NCBI GenBank assembly: GCA_028719205.1
Contig: JAQUKH010000005.1
Location: 62,001-107,015, forward strand
From: a bacterium
Lineage (GTDB): Bacteria > JACRDZ01 > JAQUKH01
DNA length: 45,015 nt
Direction: 5' to 3'
The translations under genes were made by a program, and so were the position numbers. Below are positions 1,552 through 36,356 of this stretch, one piece after another. The notes under the pieces were generated by a model. That model worked only from the letters and a program-made list of their open reading frames with translations. It was not told where the DNA came from and did no database searches. How positions within the stretch are numbered: position 1 is the first letter of the stretch; the number at the start of each line of letters is the position of its first letter.

Positions 1552-2671
1552 TAATCATCCTCCTTTTATCGGAATTATTGTCTCCCTCTTCTTCTTCCAG
1601 CAGAATTTCAATAAATACTGCTGCGGCATTAGGATCAAACTGTGTGCCTGAACAGCGCTTAAGCTCCATAATTGCCTCTTTTCTGGTTTTTGCCTTGGAA
1701 TATGGCCTATGGCTCGTCATCGCGTCATAAGAATCAACTATATTTATAATTCTTGCCCCCAACGGTATATCTTCACCCTTTAATCCAAAAGGGTATCCGG
1801 TTCCATCATAGTTTTCATGATGATGTAAAACAATCCGGATAACTTCTCCCGAACCAAACATAGGTTCGAGTATATGCGCGCCTTCTTCCGGATGTTTTCT
1901 TATAATTTTCCATTCTTCAGGATTCAAAGCCCCGCGCCTGAGAAGAATATCATTATTAATTCCAAGCTTGCCAATATCATGAAGAAAACTGGCCCTTTGA
2001 AGATCCAATCTCAATTCAGACGTGATATTCATCTTGTTGCAAATTAAACGCGTATAATAATTAACCCTGTCCGAATGGCCATGCGTGCATGTATCCTTTG
2101 TTTCCAGGGTTCTCGACAACACTTTAATGAAATCCAGATAATCACCTTCTTCATTGCCATCTGTCCTCTGTACATAATTTTGTATGAACGTTCTTGCCTT
2201 GTTAATGACTTCTATTTCCTGTATTTCCCCTTCTGTATTTTGCGTTACAGGCCCTTCAGCCATTCCCAACTCTTTAAATAAACCCTTTAATTCAACATTC
2301 ATACGATGCCGGCGGATACTCTTTTTTACAACACGGTTAACTTCTTCCACATCGAATGGTTTGGAAATATAATCGAACGCCCCATATCTAATCGCCTCTT
2401 TTGCCGTATCTAATGTGCCAAAACCTGTTACAACTATAACTTCAACATTAGGGTTATAAGTCTTAATGGCCTTTAAAGTAGTTATTCCATCCATCTCCGG
2501 CATTCTAAGGTCCAAAGTGATCAGGTCATATTCATCTCTATACAATTTCACGAGAGCGTCTTTACCGTTAATTGCCAAGGCTACGTTATAAGTATTTTTT
2601 AAAACCTGCCTCAAGGATTCACGGGCTCCAAGCTCATCATCCACTATTAAAACATTTGCCTGAGATTTCAT
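1544..2671 (-). CDS. Response regulator with HD-GYP cyclic-dinucleotide phosphodiesterase domain
   Basis: Receiver domain (LIVDDE, DLRMPEMDG, YISKPF) followed by HGHSDRV, LHDIGK, HHENYDGTGYP, DAMTSHRPY. Confidence 0.95.
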   Translation of the reverse strand: MKSQANVLIVDDELGARESLRQVLKNTYNVALAINGKDALVKLYRDEYDLITLDLRMPEMDGITTLKAIKTYNPNVEVIVVTGFGTLDTAKEAIRYGAFDYISKPFDVEEVNRVVKKSIRRHRMNVELKGLFKELGMAEGPVTQNTEGEIQEIEVINKARTFIQNYVQRTDGNEEGDYLDFIKVLSRTLETKDTCTHGHSDRVNYYTRLICNKMNITSELRLDLQRASFLHDIGKLGINNDILLRRGALNPEEWKIIRKHPEEGAHILEPMFGSGEVIRIVLHHHENYDGTGYPFGLKGEDIPLGARIINIVDSYDAMTSHRPYSKAKTRKEAIMELKRCSGTQFDPNAAAVFIEILLEEEEGDNNSDKRRMINE

Positions 2672-2741
2672 AACTGTTCCTTTCTTTGTACACCAAGCGG
2701 TTATGCTTTGATGTAATTATATCCCCTCGCTAATATTAATA

Positions 2742-2757
2742 TGCAATTAATATGCCA
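2742..2757 (-). promoter_or_regulatory. Sigma-54 (-24/-12) promoter for the HD-GYP operon
   Basis: Minus strand TGGCATATTAATTGCA, matching TGGCAC-N5-TTGCA with exact GG-N10-GC spacing, about 70 bp before the ATG at 2671. Confidence 0.85.
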
Positions 2758-2856
2758 GAGAACTATAAAAGCGGAATATATTTTGATAACTACTTATAAA
2801 TAAAAGATATTTATTTTTTATGGATTTTTTTTACGAATCTGAATACGAAGCCTGGA

Positions 2857-2896
2857 TGTGGTATTTATAACACACTGATAAGGTTTTTATACCACA
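2857..2896. promoter_or_regulatory. Tandem putative enhancer (UAS) sites for the adjacent NtrC-type activator
   Basis: TGTGGTATTTATAACACA (2857-2874) and TAAGGTTTTTATACCACA (2879-2896): 14/18 identical, pseudo-palindromic, 22 bp apart, 100-140 bp upstream of the -24 element. Confidence 0.65.
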
Positions 2897-2911
2897 GTTA
2901 GGGGGGGAAGG

Positions 2912-4297
2912 TTACATAAACTCAGTTTTATCGAGATTGAACTTTTTTAGTTTTAAAAAGAAATTTTTCCGGTCCATATCTGCTTCTTGCGCGGCGTGAC
3001 TGATATTCCCGTTATGCTTATTCAGTAATTCAATAAAATATTGCTTCTCAAATTTTTCTTTCGCGTCTTTAAATGTGGATGCGGTTAACTCCTGATTTAT
3101 TATAGCATCAGAATTCTCCATTTTAAATTCGTGAGGAAGATCTCCCGCCTTAATAACATTATCCGGACAGATAGTTGCCAATCTTTCCATAGCATTTTCT
3201 AATTCACGTATATTGCCGGGCCAATGGTAGCTCTTCATTATTTCCATAGCTTCAGGCGATATAATTTTCTTTTCTTTATGTTCTTCACTGCTTATTTTTT
3301 CAAGAAAATGTTCCGCTAATAAGGGAATATCATTTTTTCTCATTCTTAAAGGGGGAATAAAAATAGGAACAACATTTATACGATAAAATAGATCCGCTCT
3401 GAAACGGTTCTCATTAACTTCTTTTTGAAGGTCTTTATTGGTTGCAGTAACCAAACGGATATCCACTGAAATATTATCGGATCCTCCCACTCTCGTAAAT
3501 TCCTTTTCCTGCAGGACACGAAGGATCTTCGCCTGAGTCATAACGCTCAACTCCCCGATCTCATCCAGAAAGAGCGTCCCCTCATGTGCCAGTTCAAACT
3601 TTCCGGGCCGCTGTCTGAAAGCATCCGTAAACGCGCCTTTCTCATGCCCGAAGAGCTCAGATTCGATCAAGGTATCAGGAATTGCCGCGCAATTAATCGC
3701 GATAAAGGGTTTATTTGTCCTGGGGCTGTGATAATGGATCGCTTTTGCCACTAATTCCTTGCCTGTTCCGCTCTCGCCATGAATAAGGATCGTAGCCTTG
3801 GTTTGGGCGGCTTGCTTAATTAATGTATTGACATCTTTTACATCCCGGCTGGTGCCTATAATATCTTCTATTCTATAGGACCTCTTTACCTCAGACCTGA
3901 GATGTTTGACTTCTTCATATAATTCCTTATCCTTTAACGATTTTTTAACTACCAATTTCAATTCTTCAATATTAAAGGGTTTAATAATATAATCATACGC
4001 GCCGGCTTTCATCGCGTTAACCGCAGTATCAACCATTCTGGTGGCAGTGAGTATAATAACCGGCAAACTGCGCTGGGTCTGCTTTATTTTCGCCAGTGTA
4101 TCCAATCCGCTCATCCCGGGCATAACAATATCAAGCATGACCAGATCAAAATCTTTCTCTTTTAAACAAATAATAGCGTCCTCTCCGTTACCTGCCATAA
4201 CAATATCATACATATCATTAAAAACCATACGGAGCGATTCGCGGCTGCTCATCTCATCATCAACTATTAATAATTTCTTTTTTATTTTATTTATCAT
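2912..4297 (-). CDS. Sigma-54-dependent response regulator, NtrC/AtoC family (REC-AAA+-Fis HTH)
   Basis: REC domain; Walker A GESGTGKE; ESELFGHEKGAFTDA; Walker B LFLDEI; FRADLFYR; WPGNIREL; C-terminal GNISHAA HTH. Confidence 0.96.
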   Translation of the reverse strand: MINKIKKKLLIVDDEMSSRESLRMVFNDMYDIVMAGNGEDAIICLKEKDFDLVMLDIVMPGMSGLDTLAKIKQTQRSLPVIILTATRMVDTAVNAMKAGAYDYIIKPFNIEELKLVVKKSLKDKELYEEVKHLRSEVKRSYRIEDIIGTSRDVKDVNTLIKQAAQTKATILIHGESGTGKELVAKAIHYHSPRTNKPFIAINCAAIPDTLIESELFGHEKGAFTDAFRQRPGKFELAHEGTLFLDEIGELSVMTQAKILRVLQEKEFTRVGGSDNISVDIRLVTATNKDLQKEVNENRFRADLFYRINVVPIFIPPLRMRKNDIPLLAEHFLEKISSEEHKEKKIISPEAMEIMKSYHWPGNIRELENAMERLATICPDNVIKAGDLPHEFKMENSDAIINQELTASTFKDAKEKFEKQYFIELLNKHNGNISHAAQEADMDRKNFFLKLKKFNLDKTEFM

Positions 4298-15451: not shown

Positions 15452-16252
15452 ATGAATACAAGAATAATTGCAATAGTTAACCAAAAAGGCGGCGTCGGTA
15501 AAACCACCTCCGCGGTAAATTTAAGTGCCGGGCTTGCGATGATGGGCCATAAGACTTTGCTTATTGATATAGATCATCAGTCAAATACCAGTTCAAGCTT
15601 AGGGGTTCGCCCATTAACCCAGGAAAATACCGTTTGCCAGCTTTTTACGGCCCCCGCGGAAACTTTTAATATCTCCACAATCATTCTGGAAACTATGGTG
15701 GATAATTTGTTTTTAATACCTTCGCACAGGAACCTGTCGTCGGTAGAATTAGACCTGCCGTATAAAACTAATATTGATAATAGAATTATGTTAAGAGACC
15801 GGATCTCAATTATCTCTAATAATTATGAATTTATTATTATTGACTGCCCGCCATCACTAAACCTTCTGGCAATTAACTGCCTTACCTGCGCTAAAGAAAT
15901 ATTGATCCCGATAAAAAGCGAGGATAAATTCTCATTGGACGGAATCGTCCAGCTGCATTCAGTTATATCCAGCATAAAACAAAATCTTAATCCCGATATT
16001 GAAATAATGGGATATTTACCTACATTTTACACCGCATCCACTAATCTGGCCAGAGAAATTCTTGACCAATTAAAAAAACAATTTGACAAACAAGTTTTTG
16101 AAACAGTTATTGGAAAACGGATCCATATCGCAGAAGCACCAATAGCACATCAACCGGTACAGTTATACGCCAAGGGATCATATGGGGCAAAGGCATATAA
16201 CGAACTGGCTAAGGAGGTAATTAACCGTGGCAAAGAAAAAATTATTAGCTGA
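15452..16252 (+). CDS. parA: ParA/Soj family ATPase
   Basis: Deviant Walker A NQKGGVGKTT, LLIDID, IIIDCPPSL, IAEAP. Confidence 0.92.
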   Translation: MNTRIIAIVNQKGGVGKTTSAVNLSAGLAMMGHKTLLIDIDHQSNTSSSLGVRPLTQENTVCQLFTAPAETFNISTIILETMVDNLFLIPSHRNLSSVELDLPYKTNIDNRIMLRDRISIISNNYEFIIIDCPPSLNLLAINCLTCAKEILIPIKSEDKFSLDGIVQLHSVISSIKQNLNPDIEIMGYLPTFYTASTNLAREILDQLKKQFDKQVFETVIGKRIHIAEAPIAHQPVQLYAKGSYGAKAYNELAKEVINRGKEKIIS

Positions 16253-16619
16253 TGATTATCTGGCTACCCAGCTTGCGATCTTAACCCCCTCTCCTAATAT
16301 TTCATCCACGCTTGTTCGAGGGCCTTTAGTAAGACACTTAATAATGAAAGAACATCTCGAGGAAGAGAAAAAAGCGGTTGAAATTATAACAATCGATATA
16401 AATCCGATAAAAAGAGAGATCGGCACGTTAGCTGTTAAATTTATGGGAAGAAAAGGCAAGCTCATTGAGGAAAAAATACAAAAAGCCAATACCCCCCGTG
16501 AAATTATGCAATCTCTCAAAGATATTGAAAAATTCGCGTCGATCTTTTTAAAAACAAGCATAGCCGAACAAATGCTGGAAGAAATGCATTGGACGGCAAA
16601 CCAATTTATCCAGCCATAA
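16227..16619 (+). CDS. Hypothetical protein overlapping the parA stop (putative ParA partner)
   Basis: AAGGAGG SD, GTG start inside the end of parA; 130 aa, basic N-terminus, helical C-terminal half; no ParB GERR motif. Confidence 0.8.
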   Translation: MAKKKLLADDYLATQLAILTPSPNISSTLVRGPLVRHLIMKEHLEEEKKAVEIITIDINPIKREIGTLAVKFMGRKGKLIEEKIQKANTPREIMQSLKDIEKFASIFLKTSIAEQMLEEMHWTANQFIQP

Positions 16620-16699
16620 ACAAGACTTAAGCGGAAGGTTCTGACTGAAAGTCAGGTTCTTTCCGCTTCTAGTTCTTGTTATCCTCGAAGGGGATAAAC
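16616..16699 (+). mobile_element. 78-bp structured repeat, copy A (attC-like mini-element)
   Basis: 16617-16698 matches the reverse complement of 36274-36355 at 70/82 positions without gaps; ATAAAC direct repeats at 16616 and 16694; two hairpins. Repeat is seen directly, mobility is inferred. Confidence 0.75.
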
Positions 16700-16769: not shown

Positions 16770-18122
16770 ATGATAAATAAACCCGTGAGTATTTTCTTAT
16801 TTTTTTTGATTTTAGTAATTGAACTGATATTCCCTTCCTTTATGCAAAAAATAGAATGTAAAGAATTCCCGGCAATCATTATGATATCTTTAAACCGTTC
16901 AATTATAAAAACAATCGCCCGTGATTCCCTTGGACAGGAGCAGGACAAGATAATAAAAGATTTCGGTAAAACCAATATTCATATAAAAAATTTTAGTTAT
17001 ACCCATGTGGATACTTCAGTTTTGTTTAATATTACCACCGCCAATTATCAATTTATCGGCACCCCTCCTCCCGGTGTTAAAAAAGAAATGAAAATAACTT
17101 TTTCGTGCAGTAAATTTACACTTTACAAAATGTCGATGGCTGATTATGAATTCAAAGACAATGATATGAATGAATTCAATGTAGGCGGAAACCCCATTGA
17201 ATTTAAAATAATACCTGAAAGTGACTCGTATAATTTCTATTTTACATATAATATTACACCTGAGGAGCAGATAATACCAAAAGTGAAAGAGATAAAAAAA
17301 GAAGAACCTAAATCAATCCCTAAAGAAAAAACACCTCCTGTTAAAAAAGACAACGTTGTCTATTCATATGAAACAAATCTTACACCGGTCATCGACGGTA
17401 AAGAATCAGATAGCGCTTGGGATATAGCACCCTTTACTATTATAAGCCTTTCGGGTAATCTGGATATTCAAAATATACAGGTTAAATCCATCCATACAAA
17501 AGAAAAAATATTTTTTATTTTTAAATGGCAGGACTTTAGTAATGATTATTTGCATAGATTATGGGTATGGGATAAAAACAGAAAAACCTATTTAGAAAAT
17601 GACAGCCGCGAAGACAGGCTGGTTATTAAATTTTCAATAAACAGTAATTTCGCTTCCTGCCCTGATGAAGGAATAGATTCCATAGCGGACATTTGGGACT
17701 GGCGGGCTGCGTTAACTAATCCATCGGGATTTGCCGATGATAAAAAAGAAATAATGAGTTTAAGAAGATTACCCCGCTCATACGAAGTCAAAACGAAAAA
17801 TAATAAAAAAATATATCTTCAATATCTGCCTGATGAAGGAAATTCTCCTTACCGGCAGGATATAGCAACCGCTTTTTCAGGGGAAACCATCCCTCAATTT
17901 CTTACTCAAAAACCTTCCGGCAGCCGGGCTGATGTTCTTGCTTCCGGATCGTGGGATAAAAATTACTGGGTAGTAGAATTTGAACGCACACTTACTACTT
18001 CCGATACGGAGGACGTTCAATTTAATTCAAAAGACAACATTGATTTTTTAATTGCGGTTTATAATCATTCAGAACTGAGCAATCATAATTTTTCGCAAAA
18101 ACTAAATTTTATTTTTAAATGA
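16770..18122 (+). CDS. Exported protein with C-terminal ethylbenzene-dehydrogenase-related (EB_dh/DOMON-like) domain
   Basis: PVIDG..SDSAW, IFFIFKWQD, EDRL, DIWDWRA, NPSGFADD, GSRADV.A.G.W, WVVEFERTL, DVQF. Confidence 0.75.
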   Translation: MINKPVSIFLFFLILVIELIFPSFMQKIECKEFPAIIMISLNRSIIKTIARDSLGQEQDKIIKDFGKTNIHIKNFSYTHVDTSVLFNITTANYQFIGTPPPGVKKEMKITFSCSKFTLYKMSMADYEFKDNDMNEFNVGGNPIEFKIIPESDSYNFYFTYNITPEEQIIPKVKEIKKEEPKSIPKEKTPPVKKDNVVYSYETNLTPVIDGKESDSAWDIAPFTIISLSGNLDIQNIQVKSIHTKEKIFFIFKWQDFSNDYLHRLWVWDKNRKTYLENDSREDRLVIKFSINSNFASCPDEGIDSIADIWDWRAALTNPSGFADDKKEIMSLRRLPRSYEVKTKNNKKIYLQYLPDEGNSPYRQDIATAFSGETIPQFLTQKPSGSRADVLASGSWDKNYWVVEFERTLTTSDTEDVQFNSKDNIDFLIAVYNHSELSNHNFSQKLNFIFK

Positions 18123-27628: not shown

Positions 27629-27943
27629 CTACATATTAATTTCATTTATTTTTACTTTAGAAAAATCTGAACGATGACCAATAGTTTTTCTATAACCCTT
27701 TTTCGCTTTATATTTCGTAACCCGGATCTTTTCACCTCTTAACTCCTCAACAACTTCACCCTGAACCTTGATCTTTTTCAAAGCCTTGTTATCTGTAATA
27801 AGTTTTTCTCCATCCTGAGCTAAAACTACATTAATAAATTCAATTTTTTCTCCCGGCTTTTGTTTTAAACGGTCCATTGTTACAACATCTCCCTCTTTTA
27901 CCTGCAACTGGCTGCCCTGAGCCTCAATTACTGCCTTTTTCAT
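27629..27943 (-). CDS. rplU: 50S ribosomal protein L21
   Basis: AVIE..G.Q..V.EGD, RGEKI, KGYRKTIGHR; directly upstream of rpmA. Confidence 0.95.
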   Translation of the reverse strand: MKKAVIEAQGSQLQVKEGDVVTMDRLKQKPGEKIEFINVVLAQDGEKLITDNKALKKIKVQGEVVEELRGEKIRVTKYKAKKGYRKTIGHRSDFSKVKINEINM

Positions 27944-29456
27944 AAAATTTCACCTCCTTCTGCTGAATAATTTCATAATTTTCCATATTTATATCCTTAT
28001 CGGCCTTAATAAAAATGTCCCGATTCAGTAATTTTTCTAAATATCTTACCTCCGAGATCGCCTCCCGAAGTATATAGATCGCAACGCTATTATGAACCTT
28101 TACCAGTATCCTGTTTGTAAACTGGTCATATTTTTTATGCTTTATTTCATTAAATACTTCACCTGCAATAACAGCAACCGGCCGTACAATCCCCTCACCG
28201 CGGCAGCAGGGACAAACCTCCCCCAATAATTTTTCAAGGCTCGGCCGCGAACGTTTCCGGGTCATCTCTACCAATCCTAATTTGCCGTATGCTACAACAT
28301 TGGTACGGGAACGGTCGCTCTTTAACGCTTCACGGAAAGTAGCAAGCACTTTGCCCTTATTTTCCTCTCTTTCCATGTCTATAAAATCCACTACAATAAT
28401 ACCGCCAAGATCCCTTAAACGCATCTGCTTTGCTATTTCAACCGCGGCTTCAAGATTGGTTTTCAACGCGGTCTCTTCCAGATCCTTCTTGCCGATAAAT
28501 TTCCCGCTGTTAACATCAATAGAAACCAATGCCTCAGTTTCATCAATAACAATATGGCCTCCGCATTTTAATTTTACACTGCGGTTCAAGGCCTCATAGA
28601 TCTCATGTTCAATTCCATAAAAAGAAAATAAAGGTTCCTGTCCCTGGTAAAATTCCACTCTCGACTTCAAATTAGGCTGAATATATGAAACAAATTCCAT
28701 TATTTCTTCATACTCGCTGTGAGAATCTATCACGAGCTTCACAACATCAAACGACATCAAATCCCTAATTACCCTGAATATTATCCCCAGATCCTGATGT
28801 ATCAAACTGGGCGCGCGGACAGAATTAGACGTTTTCTGGATCTTATCCCAAAGTTTGCTCAAAAATTGAACATCGCTCGACAGGTCTTTTTTCGATCTTT
28901 TTCCCGCTACAGTCCGGATGATAATGCCTTTTCCCTGAGGTTTTATCTCCTTGACGAGTTTTCTGAGCCTTGTCCTTTCTTCCTCGCTTTCGATCTTCCT
29001 TGAAATTCCAACATGGTCTTCCGTCGGCATAAAAACCAGATATCTGCCGGGAAGCGCGATATGTGTTGTTATCCTCGCGCCTTTTTCACCCAATGGTTCT
29101 TTAGCTATCTGAACCAGGACTTCCTGATTCCTTTTCAAACTTGAGTTAAACGGTCCCGATTTATCGGCTCTTGACGCGCTTATTTTTTCTATTTCACCAT
29201 CGCTGTCATCTCCCAGGAATCCTGCGTCAGACAAACTCAAATAAGCATTTTTTTCCAGCCCGATATCGACAAAAGCCGCCTGAATTCCCGGAATAACTCT
29301 GGATATCTTGCCCTTATAAACGCTCCCGACTAAACGTCCGGTTTCTCTTTTTTCCCAAAATATCTCGCATAATCTTCCGTTCTCTCTTAACGCGACACGT
29401 GTATCTTTTTGCCCCACATTAATAAAGATTTCTCTTTTTACTTTTATTTTACTCAT
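27924..29456 (-). CDS. rng: Ribonuclease G/E family
   Basis: GSVYKGKI, AAFVDIG, QIAKEPLGEKGAR, IDVNSG, LRDLGGIIVVDFIDM, CPCC. Start moved to ATG 29456 (track 29543 overlaps the upstream gene). Confidence 0.95.
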   Translation of the reverse strand: MSKIKVKREIFINVGQKDTRVALRENGRLCEIFWEKRETGRLVGSVYKGKISRVIPGIQAAFVDIGLEKNAYLSLSDAGFLGDDSDGEIEKISASRADKSGPFNSSLKRNQEVLVQIAKEPLGEKGARITTHIALPGRYLVFMPTEDHVGISRKIESEEERTRLRKLVKEIKPQGKGIIIRTVAGKRSKKDLSSDVQFLSKLWDKIQKTSNSVRAPSLIHQDLGIIFRVIRDLMSFDVVKLVIDSHSEYEEIMEFVSYIQPNLKSRVEFYQGQEPLFSFYGIEHEIYEALNRSVKLKCGGHIVIDETEALVSIDVNSGKFIGKKDLEETALKTNLEAAVEIAKQMRLRDLGGIIVVDFIDMEREENKGKVLATFREALKSDRSRTNVVAYGKLGLVEMTRKRSRPSLEKLLGEVCPCCRGEGIVRPVAVIAGEVFNEIKHKKYDQFTNRILVKVHNSVAIYILREAISEVRYLEKLLNRDIFIKADKDINMENYEIIQQKEVKFYEKGSN

Positions 29457-29460
29457 ATCA

Positions 29461-30114
29461 TCAAATCCTATTCCCGTCTTTATCATAGAACGCAAGTCTT
29501 TTAACAAAGATATAAAACCATCCTGAAGATTCAGTAATTTCATTTAAAACATCCTTCATTTTCACAGATTCTTCAACTTTCAGAACAAAATAATTCTTTG
29601 TCAGATCGTTCCCAGAACGGCTTTCATCATTAAAGATCTCAATCTTCTTATCGGCAAATTTTGCGCTTAATTTTCTCTCTAATAATTCTTTATCAAGATC
29701 CCGCGGCAAACTAAGCCTGTAAGCTATATATTTAATTTCTTTGTTCAGCAAACCTTTTTTACTTACAAATACCACTTCAGAAAGCATTAAACCTTCAGGA
29801 AGATTTTTATTGATCTTTTCCGACAGATCCTTCCAGTCATTTTTCCCCGCAAGTTCGATCTCCATCATCTCTGTTTCACTTTCCCATCCAAGCGATAACG
29901 GCGGACCGAAGGAAATTTTCGGATGCGGGCTGTACCCCTGGGAATAAAGAAAAGGGATATCCGCTCTTCCCATCGCCCTCAATATGGACCTGGTAAAATC
30001 CAGATGAGATATAAAACGGACCAAACCCTCTTTTTTAAAACGCAGCCTCACTGAAAAAGTAAATGAAGGCGGATTGTTCCCGCCTTTATTCAGCAGCATT
30101 TTTCCAATCCGCAA
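29461..30114 (-). CDS. Radical SAM-linked protein (TIGR03936 / DUF2344)
   Basis: RFISHLD, RA..RADIP..YSQGYSPHPKISFGPPLSLG.ES..E; true start may be slightly downstream. Confidence 0.9.
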   Translation of the reverse strand: MRIGKMLLNKGGNNPPSFTFSVRLRFKKEGLVRFISHLDFTRSILRAMGRADIPFLYSQGYSPHPKISFGPPLSLGWESETEMMEIELAGKNDWKDLSEKINKNLPEGLMLSEVVFVSKKGLLNKEIKYIAYRLSLPRDLDKELLERKLSAKFADKKIEIFNDESRSGNDLTKNYFVLKVEESVKMKDVLNEITESSGWFYIFVKRLAFYDKDGNRI

Positions 30115-36272: not shown

Positions 36273-36356
36273 TTTTATCCCCTTCGAGGATAACAATGAG
36301 TAAAAGCGAAAAGAACCTGGCTTTCAGCCAGGATCTTCCGCTTAACTCAAGTTTAT
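36273..36356 (-). mobile_element. 78-bp structured repeat, copy B (attC-like mini-element)
   Basis: Reverse complement matches copy A; begins at the mreC TAA; ATAAA direct repeats 78 bp apart. Confidence 0.75.

Follow-up and report, generated by a model that had tools for sequence, protein, structure and literature searches.

The 45,015-nt stretch of bacterial DNA analysed here (the window; contig JAQUKH010000005.1 of assembly GCA_028719205.1, positions 62,001 to 107,015) carries two full copies, A and B, of a 78-bp non-coding element that folds into a long imperfect hairpin followed by a short 3′ hairpin. The element has moved, because the sites of both window copies are empty in a congeneric genome, where a single ATAA is found and an insert of exactly 78 bp is missing, and because a further copy interrupts a HEPN gene. 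It is very probably a mobile, non-autonomous unit that is not an integron attC site. Analysis of its ends and hairpins further suggests a REP/IS200-like non-autonomous unit that would be moved as single-stranded DNA by a Y1 (HUH) transposase, a reading to which we assign a probability of about 0.5. The original prediction, made from the sequence of the window, had described copy A as a gene-less, attC-derived mobile mini-cassette. Its mobile, gene-less and structured nature is borne out, whereas an attC origin is contradicted by the ends of the element, by covariance-model (CM) scores and by the situation in the congener G001; the REP/MITE-like reading that had been offered as a fallback fits. 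The features of the window are as follows, with scores from CM R1, which was built on an alignment (A1) of family copies.

16616..16619, plus strand: left ATAA of copy A, the target tetranucleotide retained at the empty site; TAA at 16617–16619 is the stop codon of the open reading frame (ORF) 16227–16619.
16620..16697, plus strand: inserted unit (78 bp) of copy A, beginning with ACAAGACT and ending with GGGGATAA, missing at the orthologous G001 site; CM R1 101.7 bits.
16621..16678, plus strand: H1, the long imperfect hairpin of copy A; it folds, and shows covariation over 57 copies from three genomes.
16679..16697, plus strand: H2, the 3′ hairpin TTATCCTC-GAA-GGGGATAA of copy A, with conserved T.G wobble pairing on the sense strand only.
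36275..36356, minus strand: copy B (TTGAGT subfamily), between mreC and mreD; CM R1 101.3 bits.
29137..29169, plus strand: truncated family member of 33 bases (left end and half of an alternative apical hairpin), found by motif scan.

As originally described, 16617–16698 and the reverse complement of 36274–36355 are identical at 70 of 82 positions in a gap-free alignment, ATAAA recurs at a spacing of 78 bp in both copies (at 16616 and 16694 in A; at 36356 and 36278, on the minus strand, in B), and the TAA of the first ATAA is in each case the stop codon of an upstream ORF in the same orientation. In copy B the left ATAA is at 36356–36353 and the inserted unit at 36352–36275; the stop codon (36353–36355) is that of an mreC homologue, and mreD lies 13 nt downstream (MreC and MreD were identified by Pfam). 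At the sites orthologous to copies A and B, G001 reads CCAGCC-ATAA-ATTTAAAT and GGA-ATAA-AGGACA, respectively, with one ATAA in each and precisely the 78-bp unit missing. Empty orthologous sites with a single ATAA(A), which the original prediction had named as the comparison to make, are thus present in G001 at both window loci. At a third site, C7:19068 (contig and position in the draft genome to which the window belongs), G001 lacks an 89-bp block made up of one unit and 11 bases of a second left end. The copy at C14:25038 splits the HEPN gene of a HEPN–nucleotidyltransferase pair: the piece past the insert corresponds to positions 26–115 of the 117 positions of Pfam HEPN, and a 30-codon start lies on the opposite side of the insert.

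Exact empty-site joints were not obtained at other loci. G001 is without the element at C15:29963 and C2:160847, but its DNA between the genes there has diverged too far to be aligned, and at C15:13923, C2:8765 and C2:10871 only one flank is syntenic. In the second congener, G002, the HEPN gene is 92% identical, and the locus has a 298-bp deletion of its own. Contigs from four sequencing runs yielded no reported joint across the element. One 151-base contig from an unrelated soil metagenome (run X2) matches 16481–16619 with 3 differences over 139 bases and departs immediately after the TAA of ORF 16227–16619 into 12 letters, CTTAAGTTTAAA, that are not those of the element; it may represent the unoccupied site in a close relative, and is too short to count.

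The left end (A)TAAAC and the right end GGGGATA(A) are conserved, and the flanks beyond them are not. Among the 26 full copies of the genome, T, A and A are kept in 25, 26 and 23 at the left end and in 24, 24 and 20 at the right end, the first A is present in 20, and the base following the right end is A in 12, T in 12, C in 2 and never G; one copy has ATAT at both ends. A unit that carries ATAA at its own right end and inserts 3′ of (A)TAA would leave such ends and flanks. The stop-codon targeting proposed originally is reduced to a weak tendency: 5 of 26 copies begin at the stop codon of the upstream gene, compared with 7.5% of permissive ATAA sites (p = 0.04, calculated from crude ORF calls). 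Insertion after a TAA stop leaves the gene intact, which is probably why some copies, including A and B, start at stops. By crude ORF calls, copies between co-directional genes are in the sense direction in 11 cases and antisense in 7, and gaps between convergent and divergent genes hold 3 and 5, respectively; 25 of the 26 are outside called ORFs, the remaining one being that in the HEPN gene.

Copy number was determined in the whole genome (G000; 2.59 Mb, a draft of 68 contigs), and the two copies first seen prove to belong to a larger family. BLASTN, iterated nhmmer and CM R1 recover the same set. Iterated nhmmer gives 29 matches, 26 of them full length, and CM R1 gives 26 full copies at 55–104 bits, with weaker partial matches besides; the count of 26 rests on this agreement, as the CM search scored 150 of 993 first-look candidates. 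About 12 further truncated or internally deleted members were found by motif scan. Pairwise identity among the full copies ranges from 46% to 96% (median 68%). Two subfamilies of 13 copies each are distinguished by the outer stem, in which one has a G-C pair and the other the compensated C-G. The apical module is either CTGGCT-GAA-AGCCAG with its lower stem or the hairpin TCCCGAT-TT-ATCGGGA and its variants, and two copies have both.

Outside this genome the element is rare. It is absent from the five other genomes of the phylum that were searched by CM (150 candidates scored per genome) and BLASTN, namely the two congeners G001 and G002 and three others, and by BLASTN from 35 further genomes outside the phylum. 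A scan for the exact pattern in one genome per species gave 73 stretches, five of which are supported by CM R1 at 38–87 bits: one in a Planctomycetota metagenome-assembled genome (MAG), G041, and four in a Candidatus Anammoxibacter MAG, G042. Whole-genome CM searches found 2 copies in G041 and at least 50 matches in G042, where 150 of 3324 candidates were scored. The ends of these foreign copies, ATAAACTTGAGTTAAGC and TTTTACTCATTGTTATCCTCGAAGGGGATAA, are nearly those of G000, and the inner stem is altered with compensation. The many matches in Collinsella at about 25 bits were rejected as a single conserved sequence unrelated to the family. The rare, patchy and cross-phylum distribution points to horizontal spread of the element between phyla. 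A plasmid collection contained no match; a phage collection contained a single 34-base match in coding sequence of Pseudomonas phages, which was taken as chance; and in viral contigs the right-end pattern gave 0 stretches and the left-end 16-mer 13, about the chance level.

On the sense strand the unit reads (A)TAAAC; AAGACT or TTGAGT; TAAGCGG; the variable apical module; CCGCTT; CTAGTCCTT or TTACTCATT; and GTTATCCTC-GNA-GGGGATAA, and it has no coding capacity. Its termini, ACTTGAGTTAAGC at the left and CTCGAAGGGGA at the right, are not inverted repeats of each other, and it is asymmetric, with the 3′ hairpin at one side only. In the long hairpin H1 of copy A, CAAGACT pairs with AGTTCTTG in the outer stem and AAGCGGAAGG with CTTTCCGCTT in the middle stem, and CTGACT-GAA-AGTCAG is the apical stem-loop. 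The structural features claimed from the two window copies are legible in both: the long stem, the swaps CTGACT/AGTCAG versus CTGGCT/AGCCAG and GACT/AGTC versus GAGT/ACTC, and the invariance of hairpin TTATCCTC-GAA-GGGGATAA. Compared with shuffled sequence, both copies fold with z of about −6, and on the sense strand 0 of 200 shuffles are equally good.

Covariation was assessed over 57 copies from three genomes, in an alignment that is biased toward structure because it was fitted to the model: 86.2% of cells are paired, and 22 of 32 pairs have changed on both sides (105 cells). None of 500 shuffles reaches the observed level, and slid controls pair at up to 51.4%. The changes are focused in the long hairpin (20 of 24 pairs in helices 1–4 show changes on both sides), whereas helix 5, the 3′ hairpin, is nearly invariant and, like the outermost bases, is conserved as sequence. 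The T.G wobble of the 3′ hairpin is present in 23 of 26 copies. Since T.G becomes an A.C mismatch on the opposite strand, folding favours the sense strand: with RNA parameters it is more stable than its complement in 26 of 26 own-genome and 18 of 21 foreign copies, and with DNA parameters in 20 of 26 and 15 of 21; the associated p-values overstate significance because the copies share ancestry. The TTAT at the foot of the 3′ hairpin has two alternative partners, the terminal ATAA or the ATAA of the left flank, because the 5′ ATAAAC can also pair with GTTAT.

The absence of terminal inverted repeats, the one-strand hairpins, the fixed end tetranucleotides and the complementary tetranucleotide at the hairpin foot are the reasons for preferring a Y1 model, in which a Y1 (HUH) transposase supplied in trans would cut and rejoin the element as single-stranded DNA. 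A double-stranded circle of 78 bp is physically implausible and a single-stranded circle of 78 nt is not, so that a single-stranded intermediate would be favoured. TTAT at the foot of the 3′ hairpin would be guide-like, pairing with the terminal ATAA as the right cleavage site; its other possible partners would be the ATAA beside the left end and an ATAA at a new target. IS200/IS605 and REP systems use a guide tetranucleotide, located at the hairpin foot, that pairs both with the target in the left flank and with the last tetranucleotide of the right end (PMC6006769).

Three Y1-like ORFs are encoded in G000. One of them, of 280 aa (C14:25307–26149), scores 87.2 with the NCBIfam model of REP-associated tyrosine transposases (RAYTs; cut-off 80), has HFH and YVVLNP motifs and weak C-terminal helix-turn-helix (HTH) matches, and is preceded, 46 nt upstream of its start, by GGGGTCAGGT, which fits GGGGWSAS. 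TIRYT proteins, or TnpA-Y1 subclass 2.1, are associated with the GGGGWSAS motif (PMC3733652; PMC6006769), and the features of the 280-aa protein fit this class. The copy at C14:25038, which is the top nhmmer match and the most consensus-like copy, lies 188 bp downstream of its gene, and no copy lies upstream. We consider it doubtful, at well below an even chance, that this protein in particular is the mobilising enzyme. A more elaborate proposal, in which the element would be a minimal 78-nt single-stranded DNA transposon with a single TTAT guide for both cleavages and the target, moved by an orphan TIRYT/subclass 2.1 Y1 protein and spread horizontally across phyla, is unlikely.

Several results weigh against movement by a Y1 enzyme, or against the 280-aa protein as that enzyme. 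The one direct link between the element and such an enzyme is the adjacency of a single copy to a Y1 gene, which would be expected by chance with a probability estimated at roughly 2–6% (26 copies, 3 Y1 genes, a 2-kb window and 2.59 Mb). None of 80 metagenome loci with Y1 homologues of 42–64% identity carries the element (349.5 kb searched). The closest homologues in element-bearing genomes are 47% identical in G041 and, in the copy-rich G042, 49% identical in a partial gene with a stop codon, and the homologues in these genomes are no closer than those of element-free genomes (42–43%). No Y1 or IntI homologue occurs within 1.5 kb of 30 copies in G041 and G042, no gene recurs adjoining copies, and a search for a gene framed by a left and a right end was negative in G000 (end pairs separated by up to 5 kb), G041 and G042. 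Quentin et al. found no REP-like partner for Y1 proteins of subclass 2.1 (PMC6006769). Duplication of a 3–4 bp target, TAA or ATAA, fits the data on the ends equally well. The lagging-strand hallmark of IS608 is also not seen: GC skew on the element strand is positive for 15 and negative for 14 of the 29 nhmmer matches, in a 68-contig draft assembly with weak skew that limits the comparison.

The remaining Y1 genes give no closer partner. The Y1 ORFs of G000 are without the ends of the element, the second intact one (C26, 193 aa) has no homologue in G042, and a PDB sequence search with the 280-aa protein returned 0 matches at E ≤ 0.01. Directly downstream of the 280-aa gene is the element-split HEPN–nucleotidyltransferase pair (C14:24290–27616), and upstream of it a truncated flavodoxin-like ORF of 60 aa lies between inverted GGGGWSAS-type motifs (1906 and 2115 of the locus), because of which the locus looks rearranged. 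An inverted 13-mer around the gene, GCAGGGGATAATC/GATTATCCTCTGC, was taken as probable chance: its second arm is in a coding region, and it extends into flank that is not part of the element. G042 has more than 10 paralogues, 70–80% identical, of a Y1 gene of 314–327 aa (loci L138, L140 and L186–L191), with the TIRYT-type motif GGGGACAGG about 110 nt upstream of the start (tripled in L138); no element-like ends were seen at these paralogues.

Among known systems, REP and REPIN–RAYT families are similar in being short non-coding hairpin repeats that are mostly intergenic, present in tens of copies, absent in sister species and divided into subfamilies, and the genome encodes a protein passing the NCBIfam RAYT cut-off with one copy adjacent. 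Canonical REPs are defined by GT[AG]G at the 5′ foot of the hairpin (PMC6006769), whereas the consensus of the element, ATAAAC...GTTATCCTCGNAGGGGATAA, has neither GTAG nor GTGG at either foot. REPINs are inverted doublets, whereas the element is asymmetric, with two hairpins and defined ends in ATAA; with one copy downstream of the Y1 gene and none upstream, no clear REPtron is seen. REPIN–RAYT systems are described as vertically inherited, whereas this family crosses phyla and does not co-occur across genomes with closer homologues of the 280-aa RAYT-like protein.

IS200/IS605-family elements and their miniature derivatives, for which the name PATE is used, share with the element the lack of terminal inverted repeats, hairpins on one strand, insertion by a specific tetranucleotide without obvious duplication, a matching terminal tetranucleotide, and a hairpin foot (here TTAT) complementary to both cleavage tetranucleotides. 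The element differs in being far smaller (78 bp), in that one internal guide-like TTAT would serve both ends, and in that its left end has no hairpin of its own and is the 5′ arm of the long stem; no parent insertion sequence (IS) and no class-1 TnpA with its ends was found, and no replication-strand bias was detected in the draft assembly. With regard to the terminal inverted repeats of TIRYT genes, the neighbouring Y1 gene encodes a long protein with a C-terminal HTH and is preceded by GGGGTCAGGT, and the end GGGGATAA of the element fits GGGGWSAS at 6 of 8 positions. However, this motif match is partial, the element is not a gene-flanking inverted repeat, and the homologous loci (0 of 80) do not carry it. 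The element would work like REP/IS200-type units, yet departs from defining features of each: it has no GTAG foot, is not a doublet, shows no clear REPtron and has no parent IS among the genomes searched.

An alternative is that the element is primarily a structured RNA, either a cis-acting element of 3′ untranslated regions or a small RNA, with mobility secondary. Its strong covariation, the advantage of the sense strand with RNA parameters (a mean of 5.2 kcal/mol, via G.U pairs, over the 26 copies) and the five copies that begin at the upstream stop codon would agree with such a role. So would the sub-threshold match to the Rfam family RF01742 (lactis-plasmid RNA), whose outline is likewise a long interrupted hairpin and then a short one; the match spans 16614–16695, almost exactly the element, but it scores 26.1 bits against a gathering score of 70 with few matching letters, including flank bases specific to copy A, and the element is not a member. 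In opposition to an RNA role are the mixed orientation relative to genes, the interruption of the HEPN gene, flanks that lack a terminator-type U-tract and the absence of any Rfam family at the gathering score. An RNA function could coexist with mobility, but it leaves the empty sites and the ATAA ends unexplained, and as the primary identity of the element it is improbable.

A conventional miniature inverted-repeat transposable element (MITE), moved by a DDE transposase with a target-site duplication of 3 bp (TAA) or 2 bp (TA), would account for the TAA at both ends of most copies and for the copy with ATAT at both ends, and the long hairpin can be read as paired inverted repeats. The termini of the unit nevertheless share no inverted similarity, the 3′ hairpin is one-sided, the strand-specific wobble pairs are unexplained by such a model, and no parent IS with these ends was found in G000, G041 or G042; we regard this explanation as very unlikely.

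The attC reading, in which a gene-less cassette derived from attC would have been spread by IntI recombining a folded strand with secondary sites, is the least probable of all. The window contains no integrase, as the original prediction had remarked, but the genome encodes an integron integrase on contig C35 (6908–8248, plus strand; TIGR02249 428 bits, cut-off 265), so that absence is no argument against IntI. The integrase accompanies a genuine cassette array; G042 also has an integron integrase (364 bits), and G041 a fragment of one (178 bits). The long hairpin is bulged and variable at its apex, has AAC...GTT at its base (ATAAAC/GTTATCC), and folds in a strand-specific manner. In addition, IntI can insert cassettes at non-att genome sites termed attG, with the consensus GWT (bioRxiv 10.1101/2022.09.11.507474).

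The joints given by the empty sites, ATAA/AC on the left and GGGGATAA/N on the right, are not the G/TT predicted for IntI on either strand, and no G/WT frame fits, because in G000 the right end is never followed by G and seldom by C; GTTATCC is moreover internal to the unit and not terminal. The attC consensus is RYYYAAC for R′′ and GTTRRRY for R′. As candidate R boxes, ATAAAC/GTTATCC on the sense strand fit only at AAC, GTT and one further position, the other strand offers GGATAAC/GTTTAT, and the deviation about which the original prediction had cautioned is thus real. The five resident attC sites differ from the element in having R′ sequences GTTGAAA, GTTAAAA or GTTGCCC and G+C-rich stems, and CM R1, run with filters off on C35:1–9000, reaches at most 12.3 bits (E 0.26), compared with 55–104 on family members. 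G001 has two integron integrases and zero copies of the element, and no copy lies within the array, on contig C35 or beside a cassette ORF. In sum, attC sites (including SALINs and attG) and the element have in common a bulged imperfect hairpin with a variable apex, one functional strand and an integrase in the genome, and differ in boundaries, R boxes, sequence and array context, with no cassette ORF attached to the element; a SALIN is by definition a coding sequence with an attC (bioRxiv 10.1101/2022.09.11.507474).

The resident integron at C35:1–8248 (locus L315) is a complete chromosomal integron, in which a divergent array of small minus-strand ORFs lies beside the integrase gene. The array has at least five classical attC sites, its ORFs include a HEPN/nucleotidyltransferase-like pair, and a gene for an IS110-family transposase (2408–3424) is inserted beside one attC.

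No Rfam family and no printed description of the 78-bp two-hairpin element was found. In Rfam, the whole window gives 0 matches at the gathering score, three foreign copy loci give 0 at E ≤ 1, and the element itself gives only the sub-threshold RF01742. Its DNA strings do not occur in the full text of the literature searched, though related repeats may be included among the REPs and TIRs tabulated in the supplements to PMC3733652 and PMC6006769; a literature search on MITEs or REPs in anammox bacteria and Planctomycetes gave nothing relevant.

What is known of small non-autonomous elements such as REPs, REPINs and IS200-derived units comes mostly from Proteobacteria, with a few other groups besides, and demonstrations that they move are still poor. 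The present family is unusually clean, with a fixed 78-bp unit, exact empty sites and a presence in unrelated uncultured lineages, and it shows a clear split: the ends and the 3′ hairpin are kept by sequence, the inner stem is kept by structure alone, and the apical hairpins are exchangeable. It is therefore a good substrate for the question of how a hairpin-recognising enzyme picks its cleavage and target sites, and it bears on whether the large subclass 2.1 of Y1 proteins, for which no substrate is assigned, mobilises DNA. For annotation, it explains recurrent blocks of 80 bp at gene ends, in a toxin–antitoxin gene and in an RNase E/G gene, and it cautions that a bulged hairpin with AAC...GTT alone is not enough to call an attC.

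Within the window, ORF 16227–16619 upstream of copy A matches no Pfam family, and the gene 3′ of it (16770–18122, plus strand) encodes a protein with an ethylbenzene-dehydrogenase-like EB_dh domain (72.6 bits). The truncated member at 29137–29169 is antisense within an RNase E/G-family ORF (27924–29543, minus strand), before the catalytic domain, in a stretch whose length differs from that in both congeners; it may be an in-frame remnant of an intragenic insertion.

Elsewhere in the genome, the copies at C9:60288–60378 and C12:8307–8397 have the two apical modules, TCCCGAT..ATCGGGA and GGCTGAAAGCC, one after the other, which looks like an exchange or nesting of apical hairpins as modules. About 12 left ends are solitary (C4:42858, C8:57161, C7:19057, C36:14089, C40:12918, C41:11121 and others), about half of which end exactly after TTAA, and a mini-form in which ATAAACTTGAGTTAA is fused directly to GGGGATAA occurs at two loci. 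The recurrence of these breakpoints suggests that part of the element was excised at an ATAA-like site within it, or that deletions arose between short repeats. At C44:8694–8810 a full copy and, head-to-tail behind it, part of a second one both have the rare variant TTTAGT, and at C7:19054–19149 a copy of one subfamily adjoins an 11-base left end of the other; at both loci the ATAA beside an existing left end seems to have been reused as a target.

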